Assembly: GCA_973895155.1 (NCBI GenBank)
Contig: OZ316891.1
Span: forward strand, 17,015,651 to 17,079,650
Source: Marsupella aquatica
Lineage: Eukaryota; Plantae; Marchantiophyta
Length of the DNA: 64,000 bases
Direction: 5' to 3'
The notes below the pieces were generated by a model that saw only the letters and a list, made by a program, of their open reading frames with translations, did no database searches and had not been told where the DNA came from. How positions within the stretch are numbered: the first letter of the stretch is position 1; every line of letters begins with the position of its first letter. A program made the position numbers and the translations under genes. Below, one piece after another: positions 1,999 to 59,949 of this stretch.

Positions 1999-2663
1999 GG
2001 GAGATATTTAGGAACGTTGAACGGCTCCTATCTTGTTTGTCGCATATGCAAGTTTTATTTCCTTTTTTTATACCAAACACTCTTTGCATTTTCATAACAT
2101 ATTGGTCGATTTTTTATTCTGACTCTGGTTAGCGTCGGGCACTACTTTGAATTGGTCAAACCTATTTGGGTGGTCCAATGTGTTTCAGATTGTATAATAC
2201 ACTATATGTTTGTTTCCTGAATCTAAGGCAAGATTGATACGCGGAAATATAATATGGGTAGCGCCAAACGCTACTATACTCTGATGATACTCCACTCATA
2301 ATGTTGTATGTCATGTTGGAATATACGGAGCTTGAAGGCATTACTATTTCATTTAGTTGTACCCATTGGTATAATGTATTAATGTAAATATGATGGCGAT
2401 AGTTTTGAACATGTACATTTTTTAAAAATGAGGCTCATCTTATTATTTTTATCAGGGTGGGACCCACAATATTGACTCACGCATATTGTCAGTACTATTA
2501 TAGTCAGAACTAGCGGGTAATTTGTACAGCAAATCCTGGCTACCATGTCTATCCTTGGGACCGTAAAATGACCCTAAAACCTAATGAGTTTCTTGGTACC
2601 AGAAACTGTTTTGCTGTTAACAGGATTCCTGGTTTGCTGTTTCCTGTCTCGGTGGCCATGCCC
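1..2663 (+). mobile_element. Right part of DNA transposon copy A1; ends at the conserved terminus CTGTCTCGGTGGCCATGCCC (2644-2663)
   Basis: Terminus resembles the reverse complement of GGGTATAGCGACGGAGACAG at 40001 and 60526. Contains four TAGCGCCNGGCGCTA-type palindromes (247, 341, 2130, 2259). Confidence 0.65.
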
Positions 2664-8549: not shown

Positions 8550-8869
8550 CCACTCATTGATTACAAGTGGTAGGGGCCACGAGAGGAAGTTGACATGTTA
8601 GCAATTTATTGGCTTATATGTAGTCGTACTCTGATAATGATGAATGCCTAGATTTGACTCATGTCAGAGTCGCAACACTGAAGTACCCATACAAATGCTT
8701 TCATTATTATTACCCCTTCACGCCATAATGTCCTTGGTACGATTGATTCCAGACCAGATAAGATTTCCTATCATTCCTTGGTATTAATGAGTACGATCGT
8801 TCAACGACCGGATTTCATTCCAAAAAATATACAGTACTCGCATGACATGTCAGGCCAGTCTCAACTTCC

Positions 8870-10312
8870 TCATTGTCTCCGAGATGACATCACGCCATGA
8901 CCCATGTCAGATAAGCTCTTCACTTTGACATGTAAAGTCAGGACTTAAGTCGGAGAGGCTCTCCGAGATGACATGTAAAGTGGGGACTTAAGTCGGAGAG
9001 GCTCTCCGAATTGACATGTAAAGTGGGGACCTAAGTCGGAGAGGCTCTCCGAGATGACATGTAAAGTGGGGACTTAAGTCAGAGAGGCTCTCCGAGTTGA
9101 CATGTCATGGAGGACCCATGTTAGAGAGGCTCTCCGAGATGACATGTAAAGTGGGGACTTAAGTCAGAGAGGCTCTCCGAGTTGACATGTCATGGAGGAC
9201 CCATGTCAGAGAGGCTCTCCGAGTTGACATGTAAAGTGGGGACCTAAGTCGGAGAGGCTCTCCGAGATGACATGTAAAGTGGGGACTTAAGTCGGAGAGG
9301 CTCTTTGAGTTGACATGTCATGGAGGACCCATGTCAAAGAGGCTCTCCGAGTTGACATGCAAAGTGGGGACGTAAGTCGGAGAGGCTCTCCGAGATGACA
9401 TGTCATGGAGGACCCATGTCAAAGCCTCTCCAAAATTGAATATTACACAAGATCAGACCTCTGAGAGGCTCTCCAAGATGACATATCAGGTTGGTGATAA
9501 CTTTGGAGAGCCTCTCTGACAAATATTGGGCCTAATCCTTGCTACACACCTGAAGATGGCATCTCGGAGAGCCTCTCCAACATCCCTAAACCCTTCATAC
9601 CTGCGCAAGATGGTATCTCGAAGAGCCTCTCCAACATGGGTCAAGGCTACATACCTCTGCAAGATGGCATCTCGGAGAGCCTCTCCAAGATGAAACTTGG
9701 TGAGATCCGGTGCAAGATCTAATCTCGGAGAGCCTCTCCAAGATGGGTCAAGGCTACATACCTGCGCAAGATGGCATATCGGAGAGCCTCTCCAAGATGA
9801 AACTTGGTGATATCCGGTGCAAGATCTAATCTTGGAGAGCTTCTCCAAGATGGGTCGAGGCTACATACCTCCGCAAGATGGCATCTCGGAGAGCCTCTCC
9901 AAGATGAAACTTGGTGAGATCCGGTGCAAGATCTAATCTCGGAGAGCCTCTCTAACATGGGTCGAGGGTACATACCTGTGCAAGATGGCATATCGGAGAG
10001 CCTCTCCAAGATGAAACTTGGTGAGATCCGGTGCAAGATCTAATCTCGAAGAGCCTCTCCAAGATGGGTCGAGGCTACATACCTCCACAAGATGGCATCT
10101 CGGAGAGCCTCTCCAAGATGAAACTTGGTGATATCCGGTGCAAGATCTAATCTCGGAGAGCCTCTCTAACATGGGTCGAGGGTTCATACCTTCGCAAGAT
10201 GGCATGTCGGAGAGCCTCTCCAAGATGAAACTTGGTGAGATCCGGTGCAAGATCTAATCTTGGAGAGCCTCTCTAACATGGGTTGAGGCTTCCAGATGGC
10301 ATCTAAGAGAGC
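8870..10312. repeat. Tandem arrays built on palindrome ATCTCGGAGAG-S-CTCTCCGAGAT (upstream of transposase B)
   Basis: Units of ~39 bp with centre G (8940-9480), then units of ~45-55 bp with centre C (9500-10310). Spacers are themselves repeated. Confidence 0.92.
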
Positions 10313-10409
10313 CTAATGGATACCCTAAACTTGTTGTCAAAGGTTCTTAATTGTTGGTCCAATAAACTTAGTCACTGTCAATAATAGTTTTCACGCTCAC
10401 AAGGGTACA

Positions 10410-13400
10410 TGTGATGCCTAGCCAGGAATCACTCGGCCAGTGAAGTGGGTAAAGCAGGAATGCACCCTAGAAACACCTTAGTATAGGGACAAAACAAGGA
10501 AAATATAAACAATTAGGGGCGATTATGGAACCCGGGCCGAGGCCGGAGGTAAGGACGCTGGGGGTGAAAACTCGATTAGGGTTAGGGCGCGCTAAGCGTC
10601 GGCGGCTAGGAAGGATCAACGGGAGGAAGGACCGGAAGAGGAGAGGGGTAAGGAGCGCTTGCAGGAGATGGTGGCTCATTTGCGAGCATGAACTAGGCAG
10701 ACGACTACGGGAGGCCAACTACTGTCAGCTGCTTAGGCAAGCACTTGGGGAGAGAATAGATACTGACGATCGACCTAAGGAGGGTATGAGCAACGTCAAT
10801 CAAGCGGCACATTTCTGGGGATGCCTGTTCGAACGGGCAACTGAGTACATCAAAACTTACGAGGACGAGGAATCAGAAAGGGCAGCTCGAGAACGGCAGG
10901 AGCTCGCTTGATTGTGGGAGCTGCAGAAGACGGCTTTCTTAGGAGGTGAACTCATCAAGGACGAGTTCTTGTGGACTCCTACTTCCAATCAGCTCGACGA
11001 TCTTCTGTTTTGCAAAGACAGCGTCGTCGGCATCCGAGAGGCCATCAAGAACTGCAACAACATACACTGGGAATTGAAGGGTAGCATGGAAAGGTGGATC
11101 CAGGAAACGGTGCTAGGAGAAACCTCCATGGCAGCAAAGATGAAGAGGAAGGGAGCCGTCAACGATGAAGCCACCCCGACAAAAAGAACGAGGTCGGCGG
11201 CACCAAAGAAGCCAGCCGAGCAGCAGAGCAGGAGGCAGGGAGAAGCCGAAGAGGAGGAGGTTGATCCCATCAAGGCCATTCCAACCAGGGATGACACCTG
11301 GAAGGGCTGGGCGGCAACCCTACCGGTGGAGGTGCAACTACATTTTGCACGGGAGGAGGATGCATGCTTTACGGCCATGCAGACCAAGAAGTACCAAGGC
11401 TTCATGGCCGGATCCGGCGTAGAGGCCTTTGTAAGATTACCATGGCTGAAGCCGGAAGTACCGGATTCAGACCTATTAGAATTGGTGGGGTCATGGGAAC
11501 CCGAGACCAATTGCACGAGGATATATGGGAAGGATTTCTATCTTACTCCCAAAGTGATTGCCGAAGTGTTTGGATTGCCGATAGGCAATAAGACCAAAGT
11601 TGATACCAGGAAGACCTTGCCTGACAAGGAGTTTCGGTCGTTCCCCGGGCCATCAACGAAGAATGGCTTCTTCCGGAACACCTGCACCAACCCGCACATA
11701 GGAGAGATGATCGACTTCTTGAGGGTGACCATGCATTGTAACTTGCCGAGGGTAGAGATCGGCAAGGCACAGGTCTATCTGGCAGAGAGGCCAGACCCAA
11801 GCCGGGACTACAACGGGTACCTCCTCAACCAATTGAAGAAGATCTTAAAGGAGGAGCAGCAGGTAATCGGCATGGGGAGCGTGTCGCGGCTTGGCTATCA
11901 CATGCCGCTGTTGTGCCGGTATGCCAGAGGTCAGACTTTTGCCCCAGTACTTCCCCTGCAGGTAAGGGCACCCGAGGAAGCTCCAGCACCGAGGCCAGTA
12001 GCAGAGAAGCCTCAACCACCTGTTAGCCCTATGATCGAGCAGGTGTTTAGACCAAGGAAGGAGGACTTGCCGATGCAGCAACCAGGCATGCAGAGTCTGC
12101 TGAAACTACTAGAGAAAGAGAAGAGATCAGCATCGGCAACAGCAACGGCAACGACAACAATGCAGGACACTACTCCAGAGGTAGGCTTACACCGGCTTAC
12201 AAAAGAAAACCCCTTTGCTGGAGACAAGGAGAGAATCAGGCCGGAATCCAAGCCAGGTGTTCGAATGTATGTGGGAGTCTCAAGCTCTGAATCTGAGGCA
12301 GAATTGCCTGAAGCTCCTACCGACAAAGAGGAGAGGGAGAAGCCGGACGTCCAAGAAGTAGAGGAGGCAGTGGAGGACTGCAGCCATGATAACTCCGGCT
12401 ATGGGTCGGACCATCACGTTCCAGGAGTAAGGACCTGTGGCCGGTTTTTCCCCACACTTCCGAGGGTAGTACGAGGGGACCCCAACCAGCAGAGTAGCCC
12501 TGAGTCTCCCCCACCAGATGTTGCTCCCCCGAGCTTTGACGGCATAAAATAGACGACGCAGGAATTTCAGGAGCGAATCAGGCAGGAAGAGGAGGCAGCC
12601 CTGGCTAGAGAAAAGGATTTGCCAGGAGGAAATTGGCCGGAGGACATCAGGCGGCTAGCCAAAAAAGGAAGCAAACCTCTAGCCACGATTGAAGAGATCC
12701 GCAAGACGGCTTGGGAGCAGAGGCCGCGATGGGCGATGCCGATCACTTCTACTTACTCCACCTACGCTAAGAATAGAGCCATGGAGTATGGTGAGATGTG
12801 TGGGGAACTTACGCTCGGCATCTTTGGAGAGGAGTTGGAGGTAGGACCCTTTTTCCATAGGGAGCAGTTCGAGAAGCACCAATTAGAAGAAGCGGTGGCT
12901 TTAGAGAGAAGCAAGAAGGACGAGGTCATTCGGCGGCTTAGGAGGATGGAAGCCGAGATTGAAGATCTAAGGGCGGCCAAGAAAGCCCAAGATGAACTGC
13001 GGATTAAACGGCATGAGCTGAACATCATGCAGGGGCAACTAGACACCGCGCAGGCTGATAATCAGAATATCAAGGATAAACTGACTCAGACGCAGGGAGA
13101 GTTGGCCGATACGATCAAAGAGAGGGAGAAGTGGAAGCGAGAGCTGAGGAATGCAGAGGAGGCCCACATAACCGCCAACAGCCGGGCCATGGCGGAAACC
13201 CAAAGAAAGGAATGGGCGTTGAAGGGGGAGCTCGAGAAAATCCGCGGAGCCCTTGAGCAGAAGGAGGCCGAGTTAGGAAAATCCTATCAAGGGATTATGG
13301 CGCTGCAGCAGGAGCTTGCATCCCTGACGGCCAGCTTCAAGGCCGACCTAAGGGAGAAGGACGAGATGCTCGATCAGACTTACGCCAAGATGAATCAGAT

Positions 13401-15083
13401 GGAGTCTGTCATCATTGCAGAGCTCGACAAGGAGCTAAGAGCAACCCGGGAGGAGAGGGCTACCTTGAAGAAAGAATGGGAGGAAGCCCAAAAGGAACTA
13501 GAGGAGGCACGCAAGGACCTGGATGAGACCCAGGAGGAGTTGGAGGAGATCACGAGGAAGATGGAGAACCTCTAGCGGCGGGCCGACAACCAAACAGAGC
13601 GGCTGAAGAAACAAGCCGCAGTATTTAAGTGCTTGTCTTCATCAGGCCCAACTCCAATTGGGGCAACCAAGTTACCAGGAGTGGTACTGGCCGAAGAAAA
13701 AGCCGCGCCACCTGCACCAGTGCCGGAAGTAAGTGGGAAGGGGAAGGGACCAGCTGCCGAACCAAAAAAGAAGAAGAAGCGGAAACCTTCAGGGTCAAGG
13801 AGTAATACGACTCCACTAGCCGTGGTGACCAAGGAGGTAGACCCAACACCAACCTCCGGCAGGAACACGGCAATAGATCCCGCTATCACCAAGGGTGGGG
13901 AGGGTGCGGCCCAAGCCGAACTACTCAATCATGAGGCCGGTATCCCAGATCCGCCTCTTGAGCAGGCCGGGGAGACCGTAGCCGAGGCTGAGGCCGTAGC
14001 CGATAATGATTCCCAAGCCGATGCCGACGCCGATGGTGGACCCAGTCAGGCCGATGGAGAGTTGACTCAATTAAGGGCAGGTAATCTGTCAGAAAACGAA
14101 CCTACGGCAGTGGCTGAGGAGGAAGCGTTGGGGGCGTCCATTGAGGATCCACCACCGGTGTTGTGACGGTGCAAGGGCGCCGTTCCTTTTAGGAAGGGCG
14201 GACGTGGAGGGAGGAGGCGTGAGCAGGCAGGGCGGGCGCTGATCTCCAAGTTTAGGATTAGGATCAGGACCAGGAGCGACCCTGACACTTAGCTTAGTGG
14301 GATTGCGGTTCCACTGGTAGGAGCAACACTTGTGCTCCTGCCTTGCTGTACATAGGTAGATCTGGGCAAGGAGATTACTGTTAGGTAGATTAGGCTTACG
14401 CTGCAAAGAATTAGGCGGATCCACTACCAGGATAAGTACCTGGGCAGCGGGGAGCTCAGGGCCTCTTCTTTAGCAAGTTTTTAGTTTGCACCAGCCGGGC
14501 TGGGATCAAGTAGTAAGGGAAGCTCTCGGTTAGTCATACAGTGACCCTTGTGTATATTCATGTTTCCTCATGCCTAAGAGCTGAATAGAGTTGGCCTCAC
14601 AGCTTAGTTCGCAGAGCTTGTGTATGAGATGTACTGTTTGTATGACAAGTGCATGGTATGACTCAGTCAGAAGGAGTCATTTTGCTATTTGTGTGTCGCA
14701 TTAACTTGTGTGAAGAGTGCCCACATCAACTAACAGTAGGAAGGAAAGTAAGCAGGGGAGTGAGAGTTGGATGTGTCGAGCTGAGAGAGGTCTTAGCGGC
14801 TTAACCAAGCCTATTGGGGATCATTCCAGCGACGGAATCCAAACATACCTAACAAGACAGAGGGGAAGACAAGGGAAGGCCTAGATTAGGCCGGCTACGT
14901 ATCTCATGACCCGATGAAGGATCTGTCCAGTATATGTGTATAAAATGTTAATAGTAGTAGTAGAAGGTTAGCAGCGTCCCATGCCGCTAAGCCGCAGAAA
15001 CGGCCTCGCCAAGCGCAAAACCTGTGGGAATCGGCTTGAGCTGGGGGGTTTCTTGGGTTTAGGGAGCCATGGGACGCACCACA
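10410..15083 (+). mobile_element. Giant solo LTR (4,674 bp) of a Ty3/gypsy (Tat-like) retrotransposon
   Basis: TGTGATGC...GCACCACA termini and 5-bp TSD GTACA (10405-10409, 15084-15088). The same 3' end at 20758 is followed by a PBS-like TGGCGCTAG and gag. Confidence 0.9.
10525..14166 (+). pseudogene. ~1,213-aa protein encoded inside the LTR: PMD/Transposase_32-like central domain plus long SMC-like coiled coil
   Basis: Four ORF pieces in one frame separated by three single stops (10909, 12550, 13573). Motif LLELVGSW...GKDFYLTPKVIAEVFGLP; E/K-rich heptads at 12860-13570. Confidence 0.8.
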
Positions 15084-15130
15084 GTACATTGTCAAGAAGG
15101 ATTCTTACATATTCAATGAGGGAAGAATAT

Positions 15131-15512
15131 TTGTAACAATTTTTACGCTTGGTCTGGGTGATAAGGTACTTTGACAAAACAATCTTGACATATTCAACAA
15201 AGAAAGAAGCGAGTCTAACAATTTTTACGCTCTGTCTAGGCGGTAAGGTACTTTGACAAAACAATCTTGACATTCAACAAAGAAAGAAGCGAGCCAGTGT
15301 AACAGTTTTTACGCTCAGTCTGGGCGATAAGGTACTCTGACAAAACAATCTTGACATATTCAACAAAGAAAGAAGCGAGTGTAACAGTTTTTACGCTCTA
15401 TCTGGGCAGTAAGGTACTCTGACAAACAATCGTCACATATTCAGAAAGAAAGAAGCGACTCTAACAGTTTTTACGCTTTGTCTGGGCGATAAGGTACTTT
15501 GACAAAACAAAG
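15131..15512. repeat. ~82-bp tandem repeat, ~4.5 copies, just upstream of transposase B
   Basis: TAACA(A/G)TTTTTACGCT...AAGGTACT(T/C)TGACAAAACAA...AAGAAAGAAGCGA recurs at ~15133, 15215, 15299, 15381 and 15461. Confidence 0.85.
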
Positions 15513-17640
15513 TCATAAGAATGAATAACAGTTTTCACATACTGTTTGCTGATTAAGTTACGCTCTTGAGAAACAAAGAGGAATTGAGCAAGCCGGAAAG
15601 GCAATAACATCCCTTACATGAACGAGGCATCTCTTGGTAGATGCCACTTGAACTCTCTTGGTGCTCATTTTTAGTCTTTCTTCAAGTGGTTATCATGGCT
15701 GGCCGTGTGAGGATCACGTTTCCAGACAATGGAGACGTTGTTGTGCTAGTGACTGATGGTGTTGTTCGGCATACACCAGACAACGAATTAGCTCGTCGGT
15801 TCGATGTTGAGATTGGGGAGTGGGCACTCTTTGAGGCCGGCGATGTCTTACCATTGATTGAGGCAGACTCAGAGGAGAGTGGAGAGGAAAGGATATGGCA
15901 TCTGAAAAGTGAAGTTTCGTACGTCCTTCAGCAGAGGGTGTACTCTGTTCCTCTTACTGAAGTTGGTTTGCAATCTCAAACTGGAGAGAAGATTTCAGAG
16001 TGGCCGGCAGAGGTAGAGCAAGCCAAATTGTAAGTGTTGTTGCTGCAATGCTGAAAGGGAAAGGCACTTTGTGATGTGTAAAGGCTGCCCATTCCATTCT
16101 CAGAGTGCATTATCCACAACGAGTCATGACTCTGCCGGAATGGTATGATGGGGATTGCATTTTTGAGCTCCCCCCATTCACAGGTATCCACACAAAGGGT
16201 GCCTTCTTCTTGGGTATGGAGCGGAGAAATGACTGCTACTTGTGGAGCAAGCTCATCGAGACAGGGGCCCAAATTGGACCCAACCTGAACAAGGGAGGCT
16301 TCAAGTATAAGATTGGGAATGTGAGATGTCTGGCTCTTTGCAATGTCCACATTCAGATTGTCCAGCTTTTACAAGTAAGAATTAGCGCAATTGCACAGAA
16401 TGGCAGCGAGATAGGGGTGGGAGAAATGAGGTTCAATTTCCTGTTGGGCGACTAGTTCCAGCAGAGAGTGTGATTTGCGCCTTTTGTGATCGGCCTCCTA
16501 AGTGTATAGCCAAGTTATTCGACCCCTCAAGCCGTACTCAAACCGGTACCAACCTCCGGCATGAACACGGCAATAGATTCCGCTATCACCAAAGGTGGGG
16601 ATGGCGCGGCCCAAGCCAAACTACTCAGTAATGAGGCCGGTATCCCAGATCCACCTCTTGAGCAGGCCGGGGAGGCTGTAGCCGAGGCTGAGGCTGTAGC
16701 CAAGAATGATTTCCAAGCCGAGGCCGAAGCCGAGGGTGGACCCAGTCAGGCCGATGAAAAGTTAACTCGGTCAGAGGCAGGTAATATGTCAGAGGACGGA
16801 CCAACGGCAATGGTTGCAGAGGGAGCGTTGGGGGCGTCCATTGAGGATCCACCACCGGTGTCGTGACGGTGCAAGGGCGCCATTCCTTTTAGGAAGGGCG
16901 GACGTGGAGGGAGGAGGCGTGAGTGGGTAGAGCGGGCTCAGATCTCTAAGTTTAGAATTAGGATCAGGACCAGGAGGCGGCCGTAATACTTAGCTTAGTG
17001 GGATTGCGGATCCACTGGTAAGATCAACACTTGTACTTCTGCCTCGCTGTACATAGGTTGATCCAGTTAGGTAGATTAGGCTTACGCTGCAAAGAATTAG
17101 GCGGATCCACTACCAGGATAAGTACCTGGGCAGCGGGGAGCTCAGGGCCTCTTCTTTAGCAAGTTTTTAGTTTGCACCAGCCGGGCTGGGATCAAGTAGT
17201 AAGAGAAGCTCTCGGTTAGTCATACAATGACCCTTGTGTATATTCATGTTTCCTCATGCCTAAGAGCTGAATAGAGTTGGCCTCACAGCTTAGTTCGCAG
17301 AGCTTGTGTATGAGATGTACTGTTTGTATGACAAGTGCATGGTATGACTCAGTCAGAAGGAGTCATTTTGCTATTTGTGTGTCGCATTAACTTGTGTGAA
17401 GAGTGCCCACATCAACTAACAGTAGGAAGGAAAGTAAGCAGGGGAGTGAGAGTTGGATGTGTCGAGCTGAGAGAGGTCTTAGCGGCTTAACCAAGCCTAT
17501 TGGGGATCATTCCGACGACGGAATCCAAACATACCTAACCAGAAGGAGAGGAAGACAAGGGAAGGCCTAGATTAGGCCGGCTATGTATCTCATGACCCGA
17601 TGAAGGATCTGTCCAGTATATGTGTGTAAAATGTTAATAG

Positions 17641-20621
17641 TGTTGTAACTCATACTTGAGTTAAGTCTACCTTTGGGATAACTACCTATGTAACTACCCT
17701 AACTACTTAGGCTGTAGCCACATGTACATATTCTACCAAGAGTAAAGATGGAACCAACTCTTTGTCTCATTTCTCCCACAACACGTTATCAGCACGAGCC
17801 TAAGACTGGCTGAATTTTTAGGCCATGACTGATTCAACCTAAGACAAAGAAAGGAGGGAGAGCCCTGAAGACGTGATTTGAATGTGCCAAAGTTTTTTTA
17901 GTTTTTTTCTGCTAGAACTGCTTGAAGCGCTGCAGCTCGCTTTGCACTCTGAATTGAGGCGGAATGTGGACGAAGATGGCATTTGATGTTAGCTTGAATG
18001 CGGCCAATTGTGTGAAGGGAAAGCGGAATGTATTGTGAGCAAATGGCGTCCGCATCGTTTGTTGTTGGCTTGGGCTATGCACGTTGGGATCCTGCTCGTC
18101 CTAAGTTTCATGGTTGCTATTGGATGTCTTCTTCTCATTTTTAACAAATTTTTTGAGCAATGGATTCCCTCGATCTTGGTGTCTCTGTCAACTTTAAGTG
18201 CAGAATTGCGATGATGCCTCGTCGATATTTCAGTTTTGAAGCGACCTATTGCCTCGGAAGTTATCAAATTCCTAGGTTAATTCTGCACAGTGGCAAGGAT
18301 TACGAAGATATCATGGTCCCTGCGGAATTCCTGCTGTGTCTCTTCATTCCTGCCGTGCAATGAGGACTGCGGGAAAGGCAATGCTATCCCCGCTTAGGGT
18401 CTTAGTTCCCAAAGTCACACAGTGATTCTTTCATTGTTATCCGCGAATGAATTTTCATCGTAGTCCTGCTTTGCATTCTGAACTGGCCTGCGCCACATTA
18501 GTTCACACATGCGTCAATAGTCCTGGTCCAGTCCGTTTCACTATGTTCTCTTACTCTTTCTCCACCGGTACTACCAATCTGTTTGTGAGTTCCTGGAGTT
18601 GATGAAGTTAATTGGATTGATTTCTCATTCTTCTTACCGAAAACTGTGACCAAGAAAACTATGCAAGCACATTGAATTGAGAGCGAAGCCACTGGAAACT
18701 CCTACAATTGTCCGGAGGTCTGCTACGTTGAAAGATAGCAATGCAAGGAATGCGGTGAATTGTGTCATGCAACTACATTACGGTAAGCCGCGGATAAAGG
18801 CCTCGGCTGCTCAGGAGATGTCGCCCGAGTACGAGGAAAACAAAGTGGAGAAGAGAAGAGGGGACTCGGACACTCTGTCGCGCCGCGGAAAGTTCTCTCC
18901 CTTAGGCATTTTTTGTGCCTTCGTTTTCTTCTTCCTCGTTATCAAAGGCAAACACAAGGATGAGGAAAGTAAGGAGGATAGCGATGACCAATGGGAGTCC
19001 CAAAGTTACGGCACCTATAGCACAGAAGGACACAGAATGCCAATTTTGGTAAACAACAGTTCTCGTGAGATTGGCAGTATGCATGGATAAGATGGAACAA
19101 TCCACGACCAGGGGTAGGGGCATTGGTGTTATGAGCTTACGAGTTGACCATTGGAAGCACGAACCAAGAGAAGCTTGGAGAAAAGAGGATAAGAGCACGA
19201 AGGGAATGCGCGCAGCAAAGAACAAATCTCGCAACAAAAATGCTGAAACGTCGAGAAAACGTCGAGAACATACCGCTAAGTGCAAACCCTCCTTAATTGC
19301 AAAACCCATCAAATAGATTTGCGTATACAAAGAACAATGTGCACTGAACCAGGGAAACACACATACTAAGAACGGGGACGAAATGGCATTAAAATGAAAG
19401 ATATCTATTGGAAAGATTACCATATAAGAATTGCCATTCACAAATTCAGGGGGAGAATTGTTTTTCCCAACGTGCCTACTGCATTTAAAAGCTGCCTACG
19501 GCACTTAAAAGTTCAGCTCCGTGCCTACTACACATGGAAGCCAATGAGTGCGTACTGCACATGGAAGTAAATGACAAATTGAGGGGGAGACCTCAAGTAA
19601 GACTTGACATCAAGCAATGTAACCCATGGGATGTGCCTATTGCACAAGTGCCTTTCGCACCAATGAATACCTAAAAATGGAACTCTATTCCATGCATATG
19701 GCAAATCATGAAATCTAAGGAATTTTTATAAATGATTGAACATGGTGTTAACACAATCACTTACCAATACTTGATGAGGTATACTGGATATTAAAGTACC
19801 ATATGATAATATGAGGTACAGTACAAGGTCATAAGGTACCATAAGGTGAGACATGGCATGGTAAGGCACCATAAGAGATGGTGCGCCATATGGGATGATA
19901 ACCCTATGTTATGGATATGGTACGTGATATGGTTCAAATAGGTTATGCCCACACCAAATCTAGGATTGGACACCCAATCCAATTCCAAAGCCATGGATTA
20001 CACCATATCATCTTCATTTTGTACTAATACTTTGCTTTGTCATGGCATGTAATCTGTGACCATCAAGGAGTCTCCATTTCCCGATTGGAAGGAGACACGA
20101 GAAACAATCAACCAAGGAGGATCTTCAACAAGCCTATAGTGCTGACAAGCACCTTAAGAGACTTTGTAGAAATTACACATACACTATATGCTTAAACCCA
20201 ATTATGTTACACCCATGGGGATGGTAATACTCTTTCCTCCCACAAAGAAAGTAGGGGAGGTTTTAATGAGGTTACATCCCCCACTTACACTTTACCATAC
20301 AACATGAATTATAAGACATCTATTAGGAGAAGCTTGACATTCATTTATAGTAGACTTGAGATGACTACACCACTTATAAAATAGGCTAGACATAAACAAA
20401 ACCTATTGTATACCACTGAATATACCCAAAGTAGACTCTTGATTGTAACATTTCAACCCCAATGTTACAAAGGGGGAGTGTTGTAACTCATACTTGAGTT
20501 AAGTCTACCTTTGGGATAACTACCTATGTAACTACCCTAACTACTTAGGCTGTAGCCACATGTACATATTCTACCAAGAGTAAAGATGGAACCAACTCTT
20601 TGTCTCATTTCTCCCACAACA
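17641..20621 (+). mobile_element. Non-autonomous Bianca-like Copia LTR element (143-bp LTRs at 17641-17783 and 20479-20621)
   Basis: TG...CA LTRs identical by eye; TSD AATAG (17636-17640, 20622-20626); PBS CGTTATCAGCACGA (17784-17797); PPT AAAGGGGGAG (20469-20478); no gag/pol motifs inside. Confidence 0.9.
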
Positions 20622-20762
20622 AATAGTAGTAGTAGAAGGAGGTTAGCAGCGTCCCATGCCGCTAAGCCGCGGAAACGGCCTCGCCAAGCGTGAAACCTGC
20701 GGGAATCGGCTTGCGCTGGGGGGTTTCTTGGGTTTAGGGAACCATGGGACGCACCACATTTT

Positions 20763-20780
20763 TGGCGCTAGATGGAGGGG
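20763..20780 (+). promoter_or_regulatory. PBS-like sequence TGGCGCTAGATGGAGGGG of the giant-LTR retrotransposon
   Basis: Begins with TGG four nt after the LTR end (CACA, 20758) and precedes gag. Cognate tRNA not identified. Confidence 0.55.
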
Positions 20781-20827
20781 GCATTTCTTAAGCCGTGAGA
20801 TATGAAGTTAGAAAGGAAGCATAGGTA

Positions 20828-22582
20828 ATGACTGACCTTACGCCGAGGGAAGAAAGAGTGATTCAACGGGAGAGAGCTCGACTGCAGCAGCTCGCCGGGT
20901 GGCATGATACACAGCGACTGAGAGGAGCAGAAAGAGCTGGTAGCTCCGAAGCTGGAAGTGGCGTCGAAGAAGACATACCAGAAGAAGAGTCGGTAGGAAG
21001 AAACGAGTACCCAACCAACATGGGGGAACCAGAGGCGCGGCCAGACGAGAGGCCAGGGACCAGACTGAGCCAACGGTCACGCATTCATTACAAAGCATTT
21101 CATGGAAGAGGAGATGAGGATCCGGACGAATGGTTGGATGATTTCGAGGGAACCGTTGCAGCAAATGGAGAATCGGCCATCAAGATGCAGATTCTTCCCG
21201 GCCTGTTCAAGGGTGAGGCTAGGCCTTGGTACAGAGCATTAGATGTGGAAGATCAAGCCGTCTGGGATATCTTCAAAACACTCTTTGTTAAGGAGTTTCG
21301 ACCCATTGGAACTTCAGAACTAGCAGTGCTGAAGTTGGGACGACTTCGGTTCAAGGAGAACAAATCCTTCAAGAAGTTCTTGCAACGCTTTCAGAAACTG
21401 GTAAGACATACAAAGACCAATGCATCTGAAGGTATGCAACTTCAATGGTTGGTGAATGCTTTGCCACAGAAGATGAGTTTTGCAATTAGGAAGGAGAACC
21501 CGGAGACCTTGGCCGAGGCAATTAAGGATATTCAATTATACATTAATGCAGATATCACCAGCCGGAAGAAACAACTTAAGTCTGAGAGTTCCTCATCAGA
21601 GGAGGGATCACCCCATAAGAAAAAAGATAAGAAGAAGAAACATTCTAAGAAGTCAAGAAGTGATAACTCAAGCTCGGATAGTGGAAGTAGCAAGAGTGAG
21701 TCATCTTCTAGTTCTGAAGAAGAAAAAACTAGGAAAAGAAAGGCCAGAAGGAGAGGGAAGACGAAAGTCAAGTTGGAGGCTAAGCCACCAGATAACATTG
21801 TGGCCCTTACCGAGCAACTTAAGGCTATAATTGCAGAGGTAAAGCCAAAGAAGAAGGTAGTACAGGAGGATAGCTCTGTATGGTGTGCCTTATGTTATAA
21901 AACCGGACACCATAAAGATGCGTGTCCTAAACTTAATACTAATCATGTTCGGCATGTGGCCAAGATCAGACCATGTCAGGGAGAAATAGAGTACTTTCTA
22001 GGAGATGCCGCTGATAGTGTTTTCGGCATCAGTGAGACTGGAGCACGAGACCTATCCAACAGACCTGCATCTCTGTGGTCAGGATTAAGGAACAACCCGG
22101 GAGAGATGTATCCTCGGATTATTCAGAACCCGTCAGTACCTCCTAGGCCGAATGTACAGAGATTTGCGGCATGCTATAACTGTGGTCAACCTGGCCATTT
22201 TGCTAGAGAGTGCCCGAATACACGCAAACAGGGTGATGGACAACCAGCTCAGCTATGTATGGGATGTAGACAGGAGGGTCACATGCTAGGACAATGTCCT
22301 ACTTGGTTGGCAGGCCTGGCCGCAAATCATAAGCTCTTGCCAGTTAAGGTCTTACCGCCAGGTACTACCCCCGGAGGAGTTCAAATCAACCACATCGAGC
22401 TAGGATGGCAAGCGGATGCCGAGGCAGAGTTCGTACCATCTGATGATGAGGCCGAAGCCCTATCAACCTTCTCAGAAGAGGATTTAGATCATGATTGCTA
22501 CCGGGTCTCTACTCGATCAACCAGAAGGAAGGAAAGGTGGGATGGGCTGGCCAAAAATAAAGGGAAGGGGCAGAAGTACTGA
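20828..22582 (+). CDS. gag: Ty3/gypsy Gag with three CCHC zinc knuckles, truncated at the LINE junction
   Basis: FHGRGDEDPDEWLDDFE...LFKGEARPWY capsid motif; CALCYKTGHHKDAC, CYNCGQPGHFAREC, CMGCRQEGHMLGQC. Confidence 0.85.
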   Translation: MTDLTPREERVIQRERARLQQLAGWHDTQRLRGAERAGSSEAGSGVEEDIPEEESVGRNEYPTNMGEPEARPDERPGTRLSQRSRIHYKAFHGRGDEDPDEWLDDFEGTVAANGESAIKMQILPGLFKGEARPWYRALDVEDQAVWDIFKTLFVKEFRPIGTSELAVLKLGRLRFKENKSFKKFLQRFQKLVRHTKTNASEGMQLQWLVNALPQKMSFAIRKENPETLAEAIKDIQLYINADITSRKKQLKSESSSSEEGSPHKKKDKKKKHSKKSRSDNSSSDSGSSKSESSSSSEEEKTRKRKARRRGKTKVKLEAKPPDNIVALTEQLKAIIAEVKPKKKVVQEDSSVWCALCYKTGHHKDACPKLNTNHVRHVAKIRPCQGEIEYFLGDAADSVFGISETGARDLSNRPASLWSGLRNNPGEMYPRIIQNPSVPPRPNVQRFAACYNCGQPGHFARECPNTRKQGDGQPAQLCMGCRQEGHMLGQCPTWLAGLAANHKLLPVKVLPPGTTPGGVQINHIELGWQADAEAEFVPSDDEAEALSTFSEEDLDHDCYRVSTRSTRRKERWDGLAKNKGKGQKY

Positions 22583-25260
22583 GCGCATGCTGGGAGTTTC
22601 TGGGACAGGACTTGGTGGAAATGATACAAGAATTCTGGATGACAGGAGAGATTGATAGTGCGTTAAAAGAAGGGATAATAAAGCTCATTCCGAAGAAGCC
22701 TGATAAGAGATCACTGAAGGACTGGCGTCCCCTTACAATGTTGAACACAACGTACAAAGTCATTGCTAAGATCCTGGCATTGCGGTTACAAGAAATCATG
22801 AACAAGATAATCAGCCCCCAACAGACCGGATTTATACAGGGGCGCCACATTCTGGAAAACATCTCACTGGCCTGGCTCGCATGTGACTGGATACAGCACA
22901 AGAAGACGGAGGCACTTTTCTTGAAGTTGGATTTCGAAAAGGCCTTTGACAGGGTGAATCACGAATACATATGGGACACAATGCACTTACTGGGAATAAG
23001 TGGCCACTTTATCACACTGGTACGGGCTCTGTGGCTGGATCTTTCTCAAAGGCAATGGTCAATGGTTTTGCGACGGGTATGATTGAGCTTAAGAGGGGGG
23101 TGAGACAGGGCTGCCCCTTGTCGCCCCTACTTTTTGTCATCTCGACACAACCGCTGATGGACTTCTTAGCTGCGGAGATGGAGGCTGGGAGACTTAGTGG
23201 ACTGTCAATCACGGACACACTCACAATATGCTACAGATTATTCGTAGATGATGTTGGAATGTTCATTCCTGCCACGGAGGAAGCTTTCACCCAGGCACAA
23301 ACTGCACTTGCATGTTATGAAATGGGTTCTGGAGCAAAGCTGAACCTACGAAAATCTGTGGTGATTCCCTTGGCAATTGAGGTCATCCCGGATTGGCTGC
23401 TGTACTCTGGCTGTCAAGTGAGTGCAATGGGGGAGGTTCAGAAATATCTGGGCGCTCCCTTGGGGGCCGGGCTGAAGATTGAGCAACTGCACAGATTCTG
23501 CCTAGATAAAATCAGCTCACGACTGTCATCCTGGACAAATAAGCTCCTCTCTTTCACAGGTCGAACCTTATTGGTCAAACACGTGCTCCAGGCCATCCCA
23601 ATCTACCATGTGATGCACCTCAAGGCTTCAGCGGGTCTGGCCAAGAAACTCATTGCCCTCAGTAGAGATTTTCTGTGGGGATATAATCCTGCAGGTGGGA
23701 AGAAAATTCCGCTGGTGGCATGGGACAAGATGACACTTCCAAAAATAGAGGGCGGCCTGGGATTCAAGGACTTCAGAAGCCACTCCAATGCATTATTATC
23801 ACAATGGTTCACTAAGGCCCTAGAGTATCCAGACAGGGAATGGTCGAAGATGCTGGCAGCCAACTTATCTTTAATGGGATGGTTGAATTACAAGGTGATC
23901 AGAAGAAACAATTACACGTTCAAGGATAGGCTTCTGCTCTGTACTCTGTCTCAGGTATACAAGTGGTCTATGGAAGGCTTGGGAGGAGCTGCGTGCCCAT
24001 CTGGCTTTTTGTCCTGGGAGATATGGTGCCCCTGGACGCTGGAGCATTAACGATGCAATTAGATGTATGGTAGATTTCAATTCATTGCCAAATGTGGACA
24101 TTGTAGGAGTCACTGCTATTTGTGGACGCTTGGGAATGAGATCAATTCAGGACGGATGGTCGGTGGAGACAGGGGGCTAGAAAGACCTTCCGCTTAGGGG
24201 GCAGGTGCTACGAGGATTCACGGGGGAGCACAGAGGGCTGGCTAGAGCGTTCCTAGGGAGAATTTGGGAGTCAACTGCCTGCAGGTGGGACAGGGATCCT
24301 CCGGCCAGACAGTGGCGCTGGTCTGACAGGGCAGAACCTCTCAAGGACTTTCAGATCACCAACTGCAGGGTCTACCAGTTCTTGAGACCCAAGATGAGCC
24401 TTCATGTGCTGCTTAATAGGTGCTGGTCCTCACACCGGTCGGAAATTGAATGGTGCATTGGATGGAAGAAGCTGTGGATTTCTGACCTCTCCTGCAGGGC
24501 AAAAACCTTTATCTGGCGGATCCTGGTTGGTGGATTGTTTACTGGTCAACGGGCCCTCCATATCCAGGCTGGTACTGGGAATTGCAAGCTTTGCTGTGGG
24601 GTCTTGGAGACGATGCAACATTTGTTCATTGAATGTTCCCATGCCTCATGTTGCTGGAGGATGTGTGACAGGATTTTGACGGAGCTTCGCTTACCCATTG
24701 GAGGTGGTCTGCTGGCTATTCTTGATGCATCGACAGGACCGGAGCCTATTCACACTGCTAGGATCTTTTGTGTATATCAAACTCTCTGGATGATTTGGCT
24801 GGGAAGAAATGAACATATGTTCTCTGACAAGGTGGGACGTTCATTTGACTTGGGCCTGATGCTTGTTGAGACTGCCAATCACATCCATGCGGTTGGGGCT
24901 GGTTTACGCTTTGGGCGGCGTCGCTCTCGGTTGAACCGGGCTCAGGAATGGTTGCGGGGAACGAGGCAAATCTGGCTGAGACGGGGTGGGGACAGGATTC
25001 TCTTGGTGCCCTCTAGCGGCGGCGTTGCTGATTGAGGGGTCTGCTTTTTGGGGGGCTGCTGTGGGAAGGGCATGGGTGCTCTCTTGATCGGTGTTATTTC
25101 CCTTCTTTGAGGGGGGGCTCTCCCTGGGGCTTTGATGCTCTCTTTTGTGCTTTTGGGCTCTCTTTGTGGCTCGCTAGTGTGCTGTTGCTGTCCCTGTATT
25201 AAGGGCTGTTGTTCCCCCTATCCGTGGGGTCTTTCACGGTATTAAAATTTATAAAAAAAA
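22571..25260 (+). mobile_element. 5'-truncated L1-like LINE (RT + zf-RVT, 3' UTR, poly(A)); ORF2 pseudogene
   Basis: DWRPLTML, LKLDFEKAFD, GVRQGCPLSPLLF, YRLFVDD, KYLGAPL, EGGLGF, CKLC..ETMQHLFIEC; frameshifts at ~23030 and ~23950. Confidence 0.92.
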
Positions 25261-26414
25261 CCATTCCAAGGAAGTGTATAGCCAAGTGTCCAACCAAAAT
25301 GTTCTACATCACTCCGACCTCTTATGACCATTACATTTACAAGCACATGACACGTGTTGCTATGCATGTTGGGAGTCACTCACATCTGGCCAAATTTGTT
25401 CTCAAGAAAGATCGAAAAGCGTTCTTACATAAGTTGATGGAGGAGAAATTGAAGAAGAATCCTCATGCAATGCCGTCTGTGATCAAGAGTGACACAATTA
25501 AAGCTCTAAGGGATATTTTCGATGACAAGGTTGCTGGGATTGTCACACTTGTGGAAGCACGGGATCTGAATGAAACATTGGCGATCCTATCAGATCGATC
25601 AGTTGTAAGATCTATGATACAAAGCATACGCAAGTATACCCATGCCTCATCCGACCTCCAAGTCATCCTTGATCTTCAAAAAGAAACAGTGTTTTCATTT
25701 ATCCAGAGCACTCTATTTCCAAACCAAAAGCTAGATATAGATGAGCGCCCACACATTTTCAAGATGACTATAAAAGGTCCAGGGTCTAGAATCGATCTCA
25801 TTCAAAGGATGCAGCATGGTGGAGATCTACAAGACTCATGGGTGATGTTTGATGTCATGCATCGGATGACTGAGAAGCAATGGTGCACAATATCATCTCA
25901 TGTATTTGACCACCTATATAGAGGTCTCTACACAATTTTTGTATGCGGGCCAGTTTCGGAAGATACTGCTGCACTACAAACTGCATGGAAGGTCATGAAG
26001 CGAGTGTGTAAGGCAAATGGGCTTGATAATGTTACGTTTTGTGGGTTCATTGCCGATAATGCTGCAACTGGGTGGAATGCAGTTCGAAACACATTCTGGG
26101 ATGGAAGAGTTAATTCTCAAAAGAAGCGATCTGATGCATTTAACTGGGTGCAATCAGTGGAGAAGATGACAAAGAAATGCATGCTTCCTGGCAAAGCAGT
26201 TGAGCATAAGGAGCTTTTAGATTCATTGAGGGACGCTGCCAATGTGGTTCTTGCATTTCAGACTTTTGAGAAGATGAAGGATTGGTGGAAAAATGAGAAT
26301 GCAATCAAAGGAAAAACCAAGTCATTGGAGACATGGCTTTCGTGGTGGATTGTGCGGTTCTCCCAGTGAGGAACCTTTATTCGGCTGGTAAGTCTATGAA
26401 TTCTTAGTAATATT

Positions 26415-27240
26415 CCATCTCGGATAGGCTCTCCGAGATGATTAATCTTGGACATGTCAGAGAGCCTATTCGAGAACAACAAATGGGTCTTCTCGGAGAC
26501 CCTCTCCGAGATGGAACATATGGGTAATCTCCAAGATGGAAGACGGGTCATCTCGGAGATCCTCTCCGAGATGGAAGAGGTGGGTCATCTTGGAGAGGCT
26601 CTCCGAGATGGAACATATGGGTCATCTTGGAGAGGCTCTCCAAGATGGAAGAGGTGGGTCATCTCGGAGATGGAACATATGGGTCATCTTGGAGAGTCTC
26701 TCCAAGATGGAAGAGGTGGATCATCTCAGAGAGCCTCTCCGAGATGGAACATATGGATCATCTCGGAGAGCCTCTCCAAGATGAAAGAGGTGGGTCATCT
26801 CGGAGAGCCTCTCCAAGATGGAAGAGGTGGATCATCTCGGAGAGCCTCTCCGAGAGGAACATATGGGTAATCTTGGAGAGCCTCTCCGAGATGAAAGTGG
26901 TGGGTCATCTCGGAGAGCCTCTCCAAGATGGAAGAGGTGGGTCATCTTGGAGAGCCTCTCCCAGATAGAAGAGGTGGGTCATCTCGGAGAGCCTCTCCGA
27001 GATGGAACATATGGATTATCTCAGAGAGCCTCTCCGAGATGGAAGAGGTGGGTCATCTCGGAGAGCCTCTCCAAGATGGAAGAGGTGGGTCATCTCGGAG
27101 AGCCTATCCTAGATGAAATAAATGGGCGACTAGGAAGACATGTTAGAGAGCAAACTTTTGTTTTATAAACACATGGTTCATCTTAGAGAGGCTCTTCAAG
27201 ATGGAACACTGGTCATCTTGGGGAGTCTCTTCAGGATGGA
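26415..27240. repeat. Array of palindrome ATCTCGGAGAG-S-CTCTCCGAGAT filling the transposase B intron
   Basis: ~37-38-bp units (palindrome plus GGAAGAGGTGGGTC or GGAACATATGGGTC) between donor GTAAGT at 26388 and acceptor TAG at 27320. Confidence 0.92.
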
Positions 27241-29034
27241 TCCCGTTGGACATGTTGCAAATGTACAAGATGACCCATGTATATTTTTTGGTAATACTCT
27301 TTTCTTTGATTTTTGTGTAGGACATGGACAAAACTAAGTCTGCATTGATGTTGAACCATAGCGGGGCAGAATCCGTGCATGCCGCGATGCGCCAATGGTC
27401 TTCCACAACAAAGATTGGGATAGTGCAATCTTGTATAACAGATGCAACCCGTGCATCAAATCAAATTGGTGCCCTTGTGAACTACACAATCCACGGTAGG
27501 AAGGGCCGTGGCCCAAGCCTCTTTGAACTTCATCTCCGAGATGCCAGGATGGTTGGGAATGTTAAGAGTTTCTTCTCAAAGTTAAATACGGTGATGACTC
27601 AACTGGAGAGGGTTGAATATGCTTCGGGGGACCCAATTCCTAGTGACTATGAAACTCAATGAATGTCGGCGCGAGGCAAGGTTCCAGCTGATGCTATTGC
27701 AGTAGAAGACTCCCACCGCGATGATGTCATTCTAGTAACGTGACCTAAGAAGCGGAAGTTCAAGGGGATTTCAAGCCAAGATGCAAACTTGAAAAGTACC
27801 ATTCCTGACGTGGTCGACTTGTCAACCTCGTCATACTCTCCTACAGGCTCTGGTGGATCAGATGTGGTAATTTTGGAGAGCCCAGTACAGCGTGAGACAA
27901 GGTCAGCACGTGTCCCTCCACCATCAATCCCAAGAAGGTCAACTCGAGTGCCTCCTCCGCCCCCAACAAGGGCAACACGTGTTCCACCTCCTCCAACCCC
28001 AATAAGGTCAATACCAAGGTCACCTCCTGTTTGTCCACCAACGCGGTTTGCTGAACCTTTGCATAATGCTGGCAAACAGAGACAAGTTTAGGAGAGCAAT
28101 GTGATGCCAGGAATGTTGTTTTTATCTCGCATCAGTCGCCATGGAAGTGGTCCCGCTTGTAGAGGTGCCTTCAAAGGCACAGAACGTCCAACATGCAGTC
28201 TATACATCAAGGAGGTGGGGTTTCGTCATGCAACGTTGGGTGTGGTAGGATTGTCCTTATTGGCTAGGAGCAGTTACAAGGATCCAAACATTCCACAAAA
28301 GTTTTGGTTTTGCCCAAACAATGAGTGTTGTCAGAAATCCTCCATGGCATATGTTACTGGGCGGTTGCCCCCACTACCGGAGAAGGTCCCAGTTGCTTGA
28401 GGAACCTATCTAACACAAGAGGAAGTTGATTTTCTCCATGTCAATGGATTGAATGTGGTACAGACCATCATTCCTGGTGATTCAATGGTGAGTCCTAGCG
28501 ATGTAATTGTGGACTTGAATAGTTACCCTGAGCAGATGGATCCATTGAAGCCTGATGTCAAGTTGAGCCGACGCAATGGTCGCTTACGGCGAAGGAGATC
28601 GGTTGTGACGGCAAATGCAAAGAAACGTATTGAGAGTGCCAAATCCGAGTTGATGAGGTTCACTTCCATGACTCGAATTGAAAAAGGGAATGCAACTGGC
28701 TTACGAGTGGTACTTTCCAACACTCATTGTGACCGCAATTCAACCCATTGTGTACAGATATGTGTGTTCCCAACTTGCTCTTGTCAAGATTTCATCATGA
28801 GAGATACTGAAAGATACTTCTTTCCTTGCAAACACTTGTATTGGTGCTATAAAAACATTTGTGGACAAGATCTAGAGAGCGACCAAGAGATCCACCAGCC
28901 AATCTCGACACTTAGCAAGGTTCGTAAATTGGTGTCAAATGTAGCAGGCTCAAAGTGAATGCATGTCAAAGATGTTTCGGGTTTAGTGGGTAGAACGATC
29001 TACTTTTGTATCCTTTCATAATAATAAATGTTCA

Positions 29035-29605
29035 AGATTCCAAGTGATGTTGATCCCATCTCGGAGAGGCTCTCCAAAATTGAACAAGTGATGTTGATCC
29101 CATCTCGGAGAGGCTCTCTGAGATTCCAAGTGATGTTGATCCCATCTCGGAGAAGTTCTTCGAGATTCCAAGTGATGTTGATCCCATCTCGGAGAGGCTC
29201 TCCGAGATTCCAACCCAGTGTTGATCCCATCTCGGAGAGGCTCTCCGAGATTCCAACCCAGTGTTGATCCCATCTCGGAGAGGCTCTCCGAGATTCCAAG
29301 TGATGTTGATCCCATCTCGGAGAAGCTCTCCGAGATTTAAACCCAGTATTTTTGGCAATCTCGGAGAGGCTCTCCGAGATTCCAACCCAATGTTGATCCC
29401 ATCTCGGAGAGGCTCTCCGAGATTCCAAGTGACGTCGATTCCATCTTGGAGAGGCTCTCCGAGATTCCAACAATTGTTGGAGACTTTGGTGACCAATCTC
29501 GGAGAGGCCTCCGAGATTGACACAAAATAGGACGTCAATCTCGGAGATGCCTTCGAGATTGATTAAAAAGAAGGGGTCAATCTCAGAGAGGTCTCCGAGA
29601 TTGTC
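29035..29605. repeat. Array of the same 23-bp palindrome downstream of transposase B
   Basis: ~42-bp units (palindrome plus TCCAAGTGATGTTGATCCC or TCCAACCCAGTGTTGATCCC). Confidence 0.92.
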
Positions 29606-39979: not shown

Positions 39980-40599
39980 AAGGGTCGTACCCCTGGTAGC
40001 GGGTATAGCGACGGAGACAGCAAACAGGCAAACAGGAAATACTTTTCCTGTTTGCCTTATGCTGTTACCAGGAAAAAACATCTTGTACCAGGGGAAAGAA
40101 CACACAATCAGCAGTTTAGAATTGTTGAAGTTGGAGTTAGTCCATTGCGGTGAGGGAGGATACCTTGTAATGAATTGTTGAACCACATAATAATTGAACC
40201 TTATATCCCAACACAAACAAGGGGGAGCATACATAAAAATGTCAAGGAATGCGCACAAAATGGTAGGTCCCACCACAATCGGCAACAAAATATATGAAAA
40301 TAATACAAAATCAACGCAGCCCAAAACTTTATGTCATTATGTGGTCCAAAATAAAAGCGAACAACGGATTGACTAGCGCCTGGCGCTATCTTATCGTTAT
40401 TCAAGGAAACAAATAGTTGGCGTTGAGAACATAAATCACAACACAATGACATTTAACGGTGTAGCCTAGACGAAAAATTTACCAGCGCCTGGCGCTAACA
40501 AAAAATGATGCGACATCAATAACACTATACCGTTGACATACGACAAAATCAATATAACCGTTTGGACCAATAATACAACCTACATCATCATGATTCATG

Positions 40600-43500: not shown

Positions 43501-44417
43501 CTGGACAGGATTGGACACAAAACGGAACTTGATCACAAAATTGGCAAACAACTCCACCTTCGTCAATGAAGGAGCCAACACGATGTTGCCCGCCAAGTTT
43601 GGGGGTTCCACCCCAGGCCTTCTGGTTCCTCCTTTTCTTCCGCTGAAAATAGTCGCACGTATTATTCCTACACTCAATGGAACCAGTGCACGTTACTTTA
43701 CCAAATTCCCAATATTTCTTGGTATGAACATTAGCTGATGTAGGAAATATTCTGGTCCAGATGTAGCAATCCTTTGACCGGTCCATGTCGCGTAGACGTG
43801 ACCCCTTCGAAAGAGCTGTCGTCGCAGGAGGCAACTCGAATACAATATTTCCATTGTATTTCTTTGGCAAATAGTCAACTTGTTCATGGAAGAAGTCCCC
43901 AGCCGCGATGAACCTCAAGATTTCACTGGAACCAGTTGACTTGAGAATGGTATCCATTGCACTTCTCCGATACACAATGGAATTTTTGGTAAAAACTGTT
44001 GTAACCTCTTGTTTAACAGGGGTAACCTCCTGTTTAACAATGGTGTGAGGGGATTTAGCACTATGCTCAGGCAAAGCACGTCCATCATCGTCGCTATCTG
44101 AAAGCAGGACAACATCAACAAAGGGTTTGGATGAAGATGGGAGATCATGCGACTGGTTTTCGAATGACAATAGAATACCGAATTCCTGCATTCAGGTGCC
44201 AAAAATGAATCCCGTCATCAACATCAAAAGAAGCAGTGGAATTAGACGCTTCATCTCCATTTCCCTCCTCCAAAATGTCCTCAATGTCGTTCAAATCCAA
44301 ACCAAAGCGCCCACAGAGATAATTCTCACTAACTTGCTTGTATACGTCATTGGCCGACAATGGAATGGATACAAGGTCACCGGTAGACGGACGCGTCAGA
44401 ACGATTGACCTCGACAT
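40600..44417 (-). pseudogene. Mutator-like transposase, copy A3 (GCM-like Zn domain, DDE, SWIM); exons 44417-42413 and 42126-40600
   Basis: CTGSIECRNNTC...CQFC...SCPAR...IHMGIHNHP; WVSFDVMKR (D1), GFMADNA (D2), DAFH, NCTGSESVH (E); CSCEDF..PCKH. Frameshifts near 44160 and 41400. Confidence 0.85.
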
Positions 44418-59896: not shown

Positions 59897-59949
59897 TCCA
59901 ACAAAAGGATCAAAAAAATTGTTATTGTCTTCTAGACGGGTATAATGGG

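Follow-up and report, generated by a model that had tools for sequence, protein, structure and literature searches.

Palindromes that differ between transposon families of a liverwort, possible loading sites for an element-encoded protein

We analysed 64,000 nucleotides of the liverwort Marsupella aquatica (assembly GCA_973895155.1, contig OZ316891.1, positions 17,015,651 to 17,079,650; this whole stretch is referred to as the window), which hold transposable elements of two related families, A (elements A1 and A3) and B. We found that element B carries 57 sites of a 23-bp palindrome and that the A elements carry a different palindrome of 15 bp, and in both B and A3 the sites lie outside the exons. 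Our interpretation, which we hold tentatively, is that a dimeric protein which the elements themselves encode loads at these palindromes, most likely the A3 accessory protein with its predicted ParB fold and methyltransferase domain, and that the sites serve recognition of a family's own copies and probably their de-silencing. There are few known cases of transposons that recognise their own DNA and modify it.

Element B is made up of the following parts, given with their positions in the window and their strand.

8550..10409 (+), surviving part of the left arm of B, truncated at 8549 by an inverted copy of a long terminal repeat (LTR)
8947..9479 (no strand), upstream array 1: 12 sites, period 42-43 bp, two spacer types
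9500..10279 (no strand), upstream array 2: 15 sites, period 53-54 bp within a 107-bp dimer
10410..15083 (+), solo LTR (TG..CA) inside B, with the 5-bp target duplication GTACA
15132..15510 (+), 82-bp tandem repeat in the 5' region of B, without the palindrome
15695..16515 (+), 5' part of transposase B, matching the A3 region with a predicted GCM/WRKY-like zinc domain; stops and frameshifts
16516..25271 (+), composite insertion splitting transposase B (partial LTR, small LTR element, gag, long interspersed nuclear element), with a 16-bp duplication at 16500-16515 and 25272-25287
25272..26387 (+), transposase B exon 1, catalytic-core part, with a single in-frame stop near its end
26388..27320 (+), intron of 933 nt: 20 sites, period 37 bp
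27321..28958 (+), second exon of transposase B, ending in a SWIM-like CxC..CxH motif at the C-terminus (SWIM E 0.037, below the cut-off), with four in-frame stops
29058..29605 (no strand), downstream array: 10 sites up to 29465, then degenerate copies
near 29662, probable right end of B; unique contigs start at 29633 in runs X2 and X3

A preliminary description of this DNA had placed sites at 8870-10312 upstream of the transposase, which is correct only with two insertions (10410-15083 and 16516-25271) taken out; it is these nested insertions that put 15 kb between the upstream arrays and the catalytic exon. Both are bridged by other copies. An X4 contig has a loose end at 10408 that goes on with the sequence following 15088; in X1 and X2, loose ends at 25272 lead into sequence ending at 16499. 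Once the LTR is removed, 736 bp separate the last upstream site from the B start codon. On the left, loose contig ends fall before 8549/8550 in all four runs (X1-X4), and B copies elsewhere extend beyond 8550 into sequence not present in the window. Contigs of X4 that cover the left arm, the start of array 2 and the transposase (long contigs) have depths of 133, 111, 131 and 109 vs 15 in the unique flank, depths that do not equal copy numbers. The copy of B in the window is most probably dead, a decayed element of Mutator-like (MULE) type that is decaying neutrally.

We also considered whether the upstream arrays are part of the flanking LTRs. This was rejected, since the arrays lie outside both LTR ends and the LTR is bridged by other copies. 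The two LTR copies, 5132-8549 (-) and 10410-15083 (+), are 81-83% identical and stand back to back around the upstream arrays; this LTR is unusually long (4.7 kb) and contains a long coiled-coil open reading frame. Within the partial LTR inside B, a 3-kb element at 17639-20621 has identical 145-bp terminal repeats, and its insertion is probably recent. Beside the right end of B, a short element at 29790-30095 with inverted ends CTAGGTTCCATGGG ... CCCATGGAACCTAG has a depth far above that of its flanks in all four runs and is probably a miniature inverted-repeat transposable element.

The B motif is the 23-bp pattern ATCTCGGAGAG.CTCTCCGAGAT, in which any base is allowed at the centre. It is matched in the window 6 times exactly, 24 times with at most one mismatch, 39 times with at most two and 47 times with at most three. 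Under a looser rule (at most 6 mismatches in 23 bp, at most 3 of them in the 13-bp core) we counted 57 sites, in line with the dozens first described; all 57 fall in the four arrays listed above and all 57 are non-coding. Ten simulated sequences of 64 kb (Markov-1) gave 0-1 sites each under the same rule. When the palindrome cores of the window were ranked (n=130), the B motif came first with 31 and the 15-bp A motif second with 12, the next having 3.

The arrays had been described as perfect, constant palindromes separated by differing spacers. The spacers do differ: none of 24 between-array spacer pairs scored above shuffles at p<0.05, against 2 of 4 within-array pairs. In contigs from the other runs, further B copies carry the motif around spacers that are absent from the window, with the joints at the motif edges. 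Constancy and perfection were overstated, as only 8 of the 57 sites are perfect over 23 bp and 31 are perfect over the 13-bp core. C>T or G>A changes at two CpGs account for 51 of the 117 mismatches, and the CpG G>A change on the right arm is found in 14 of the 15 sites of upstream array 2. G19A is the commonest variant (24/57). The centre is C in 29 sites, G in 26 and T in 2, and the bases next to it are conserved (G11 in 53/57, C13 in 55/57). The array periods of 37, 42-43 and 53-54 bp come close to 3.5, 4 and 5 helical turns, four values that prove little. A second short palindrome, TGACATGTCA, recurs at 8850-9410, 26450 and 27120, adjoining or overlapping degenerate B half-sites.

The A-type features of the window are the following.

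1..2650 (+), 3' part of A1: transposase; intron of 280 nt with two 15-bp sites, and two further sites downstream
40001..50622 (no strand), A3, complete at both ends, with the 9-bp target duplication CCTGGTAGC (39992-40000 and 50623-50631) and degenerate terminal inverted repeats (TIRs) containing AACAG repeats
40600..44417 (-), A3 transposase; its model resembles the IS256-family ISCth4 transposase and GCM/WRKY domains
45377..49104 (+), accessory gene of A3, arranged head to head with the transposase gene; predicted domains are a ParB/Srx fold at the N-terminus and an N6/N4 methyltransferase at the C-terminus
60526..60880 (-), A-type terminus remnant with two degenerate 15-bp sites (60688, 60710)

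The A-family sites are scattered singletons and pairs and form no tandem arrays. All 16 of the 15-bp palindromes in A3 are non-exonic under the exon placement used (chance 7e-8 if placed at random), and at least one is present in each intron of both A3 genes, the three putative introns of the accessory gene included. A blastn search for a terminal inverted match in A3 returned none; its ends have only the AACAG repeats in common, and these repeats are absent from the ends of B. A Gypsy element (39467-40000 and 50623-56819) carries A3 in its integrase region; the Gypsy LTRs, at 37549-39028 and 55327-56819, are 94% identical.

As first proposed, transposase B is homologous to that of A. The A3 frames matched B by tblastn at 36.5% identity over 378 aa (E 1.5e-83), 32% over 199 aa and 35% over 275 aa, with additional N-terminal pieces at 16111-16520. 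The intron also lies at the same place, after FIRL and with GT..AG ends, in A1, A3 and B, and is 933 nt long in B vs 280 nt in A1 and 286 nt in A3. At about 35% identity, B is by sequence a separate family and not the close subfamily of A that it had been called. The A3 transposase model is weak (predicted local distance difference test score, pLDDT, 56.5); its top four Foldseek rows were all ISCth4 (E 1e-3 to 8e-3; VIA Z 8.1, root-mean-square deviation (rmsd) 2.7 over 74 residues). This predicted fold and the 9-bp target duplication fit a MULE, a superfamily with target duplications of 8-11 bp, zinc-finger domains (SWIM, WRKY-GCM1) and TIRs that are long or, in non-TIR MULEs, degenerate. Compared with ISCth4 (PDB 6xg8/6xgx) and with MULE features as given in passages of PMC6446971, the elements have in common the 9-bp duplication, a DDE-like core, a possible SWIM-like finger and the fold match; they differ from MULE/IS256 in that Pfam at curated cut-offs assigned no family to the transposase frames of the window, nor any transposase family to the 42 relatives scanned.

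To place the motifs on the transposase kinship we used relatives from wider searches. A transposase profile matched 858 clusters at E<=0.001, and seven of ten relatives bore organism names, six Riccia sorocarpa and one Calypogeia fissa. Searched with the transposase alignment, 251 candidate stretches of metagenome contigs included 7 relatives, whereas 17 candidates from viral contigs and 87 from prokaryote genomes included none. One of the seven, L001, was the sole locus that both had a sufficiently close transposase and extended across the intron. Its core is 60% identical to A3 and it has the intron at the same position, with three copies of a 26-bp even-centred palindrome whose halves are TATTGCTAGCGCC and GGCGCTAGCAATA. 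This palindrome is built from the A half-site and lacks the central base. Odd centring, noted at first as a property of both the A and the B motif, is rejected as a rule by L001. A protein, P0087, is 77% identical to L001 over 64 aa, and its intron read-through contains LLAPALAI twice, the translated L001 motif. In one L001 intron site (L001:1172-1231) the palindrome is widened to a near-perfect 60-bp inverted repeat.

In a tree of 34 rows, selected from 92 blast rows as having 130 or more of the 185 core residues, B and P0031 were sister to a clade with A3 and L001 (support of that clade 93/94); the L001/P0087 pair was not resolved as a clade in the short tree. Judged from DNA or read-through sequence, motif type tracks kinship in three groups, A1/A3, L001/P0087 and B. 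There are three motif types in three protein groups, which is consistent with the co-evolution of site and protein first proposed but too few groups for a test of it. The B pattern had no match in viral contigs and a single lone site in a bacterial metagenome-assembled genome, which we took as chance; when peptides translated from the B motif were compared with the proteins collected, there were no more than scattered single matches.

The comparison of A1 with A3 bears on selection for the palindrome. The two transposases are identical at 123 of 158 and 183 of 275 residues, and at 40 of 130 four-fold sites (31%). Their introns align better than shuffles only if the motif is included (p=0.007, against p=0.30 with the motif removed), and the 15-bp motif is retained in both, in two intron and two downstream copies. 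Retention of the motif despite saturated synonymous sites and introns that do not otherwise align argues for selection on it, as the preliminary description had proposed, over this deep timescale.

If the palindromes are binding sites, their symmetry suggests a dimeric reader. The ParB-fold accessory protein is the best candidate for it because ParB proteins load at palindromes and VirB counters silencing in this way. The model of its first exon is confident (pLDDT 79.5). ParB/Srx-family proteins headed both structure searches with this domain, and in one of them the first 12 of 15 matches were ParB/Srx-family or ParB-containing proteins, the best being KorB (Z 6.6, rmsd 3.1, 95 residues). DGNHR, a GxxR-like motif, is kept in 9 of 9 aligned sequences, and an atlas lead for the exon was PF02195, present in 11% of one cluster. 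The C-terminus matches PF01555 (E 5e-8, 33.5 bits vs a cut-off of 26.7), the last exon matches phage methylases (109 records), and the region of the S-adenosylmethionine-binding motif I has a DpnA-type match (E 1.5e-4). The splice signals suggest that the accessory exons form one protein. Neither the ParB alignment nor the putative catalytic exon had a significant match among PDB sequences; in viral contigs the ParB alignment picked out 0 of 136 candidates, and longer ParB relatives were found in 0 of 287 candidates, which is weak evidence. In Pfam the accessory frames matched only N6_N4_Mtase, plus one weak unrelated match, with no VANC-type family, and no direct comparison with VANC was made.

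In the mechanism that we tentatively favour, each family's own palindromes would load a dimeric, element-encoded reader, by which the family would recognise its own copies and probably release them from silencing. Sites would be gained in any non-coding space, short tandem duplications would have multiplied them in B, and spacers would turn over as the site is kept. A bolder form of this idea, which we consider doubtful, is that a ParB sliding clamp of bacterial type, fused to an amino-methyltransferase, acts in a land-plant nucleus at family-private parS-like palindromes, spreading protective N4-methylcytosine or N6-methyladenine along the family's own copies or displacing silencing there, and that each family has come to differ in its site and its reader, down to one base of half-site spacing.

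Several observations weigh against an accessory reader with co-evolving sites. The ParB fold match is modest (Z <8, Foldseek E 0.06), and a helix-turn-helix was not recognised in the accessory protein, the second exon of which had no match in Pfam or in the atlas. Amino-methyltransferases are expected to have a DPPY or SPPY catalytic motif. The likely catalytic position of the A3 methylase, placed by eye in an exon without a significant match, appears to read IYLPTG, and LPTG at this site means that the enzyme may be inactive. The A3 ParB and methylase frames found no match in B, of which the left arm is missing. Only three motif groups were sampled, and the loci L002-L007, of which five are more distant and the sixth is a 5' fragment, had no repeated palindrome above the AT-rich background, several being too short for the intron. 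Finally, selection is not visible in recent B units. Among 41 tandem units grouped by spacer type, differences from the consensus at non-CG/CHG sites numbered 24/722 in the motif vs 20/807 in the spacer (p=0.36). This equal decay gives no support for selection, though in a dead copy motif and spacer would be expected to decay at like rates.

A reading that we rate as rather unlikely is that the transposase itself reads the palindromes, with the GCM/WRKY-like zinc domain at its N-terminus, as family-specific sites for end pairing and trans-activation. The transposase is the only protein known in all three motif groups, and its A3 model matches GCM (Z 5.3) and WRKY (Z 5.3), both more weakly than ISCth4. 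GCM and WRKY domains have asymmetric binding sites, which counts against the transposase as reader of a palindrome. The B downstream array stops about 60 bp short of the probable end of an element that has no AACAG repeats; at the A ends, however, separate AACAG repeats could serve the transposase, and the A palindromes are intronic and far from the ends. By itself, the transposase of AtMu1 binds and activates the family to which it belongs, but passages of the same report locate this binding at the TIRs (bioRxiv 10.64898/2026.08.24.746577).

The equal decay in recent B units would also be explained if the palindrome were no binding site at all and were instead a self-copying hotspot of template switching or slippage that seeds arrays, with insertions into exons lethal to the element. 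The B arrays are ordinary tandem and higher-order repeats, and arrays 1 and 2 appear by eye to have common flanking letters in opposite orientation. We consider this improbable, as the A sites are dispersed, have unrelated flanks and are kept across saturation, A and L001 have a common half-site though the central spacing has changed, and the between-array spacers are unrelated. Host transcription factors or chromatin proteins, recruited separately by each family, seem less probable again. Any binding site would fit the non-coding placement and the conservation, and no element-encoded reader was seen for B, but there is no site in the host gene region at 31300-34600 or elsewhere outside the elements, and long motifs that differ by family are better explained by a private reader. 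Hairpins of RNA or single-stranded DNA acting on splicing or small-RNA processing are the least credible reading: all four motifs tested fold into hairpins (z -2.1 to -3.4) and palindromes occur in every A3 gene intron, but the sequence and not only its pairing is conserved, many sites are intergenic, and a double-stranded site fits better because the loop-flanking bases beside the centre, which cannot pair, are conserved and the commonest variant, G19A, breaks a pair, lowering hairpin stability from -14.2 to -8.2 kcal/mol.

An element-encoded reader at family palindromes would, by analogy, be a variant of a self-recognition strategy with precedent in VANDAL/VANC and in red-algal Plavaka PAG3. 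In the anti-silencing system of Arabidopsis, binding of VANC was shown experimentally (main text of PMC5735166), and the accessory protein of that system removes DNA methylation in trans. VANDAL elements are likewise Mutator-type with poor TIRs and an accessory gene, and the same text describes family-specific motifs massed in introns, intergenic and terminal non-coding DNA, often via tandem repeats. The VANC motifs are 8-9 bp long and asymmetric ('palindrom' occurs 0 times in that main text), in contrast to the 15-26 bp palindromes found here, and the liverwort elements, known from sequence alone, have a predicted ParB fold and a methylase; the resemblance would lie in layout.

The red-algal Plavaka and Mutator elements (PAG2/PAG3; bioRxiv 10.1101/2025.02.11.637652) are closer in gene content. 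According to passages of that report they are DNA transposons whose accessory genes include a ParB-domain gene and a PF01555 methylase gene, and tandem arrays of inverted repeats next to the former are its proposed binding sites. In the algal elements one gene joins ParB to a 2-oxoglutarate oxygenase and another joins the methylase to SET, whereas in A3 ParB and the methylase apparently belong to one gene. A3 differs further in its land-plant host and in motifs that stand in every intron and differ by family; the main-text passages on the red-algal elements do not mention family-specific motifs, and the supplements may describe some.

Among ParB proteins, KorB loads at the odd-centred palindrome OB, which has a central G/C, and VirB (site virS) is a ParB-family anti-silencer (in passages of PMC13768133). 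The likeness lies in the predicted ParB fold, the conserved GxxR-like patch, palindromic loading sites and gene regulation on mobile elements; the A3 gene differs in being eukaryotic and intron-bearing, with no helix-turn-helix identified. In ParB/parS CTPase clamp systems a helix-turn-helix domain reads the palindrome, and the protein binds CTP, closes as a clamp and slides. Phage ParB-methylase loci are described in part of PMC4738411. In Marchantia, MpDN4MT1 stands for N4-cytosine methyltransferases, host genes active in sperm (bioRxiv 10.1101/2021.02.12.428880, in part); these too are prokaryote-like amino-methyltransferases in a liverwort, the A3 enzyme being encoded by a transposon. The literature searched, with partial coverage, held no paper on these liverwort elements.

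The palindromes are long, discrete and family-specific, and they include a natural pair with one half-site at spacing 0 vs 1, so that direct cross-binding tests are possible. If the ParB-methylase is the reader, land plants would have a second anti-silencing design, of independent origin, and the red-algal proposal would be put to a test; orthogonal protein-site pairs for epigenome targeting would be conceivable.

The A-type terminus remnant lies within a further decayed element at 57700-62453 (-), which has an Ulp1 protease (E 4e-30) and a possible phosphatase-like frame. An open reading frame of this element has a GQH motif that we take to be ParB-like; compared with the A3 ParB alignment, the frame at 61464-62453 was not similar (probability 0.1). 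The window as a whole is eukaryotic, 46.7% GC and retroelement-rich, with one intron-rich host gene, at 31310-34553 (+), which presumably resembles a peroxisomal or mitochondrial carrier.

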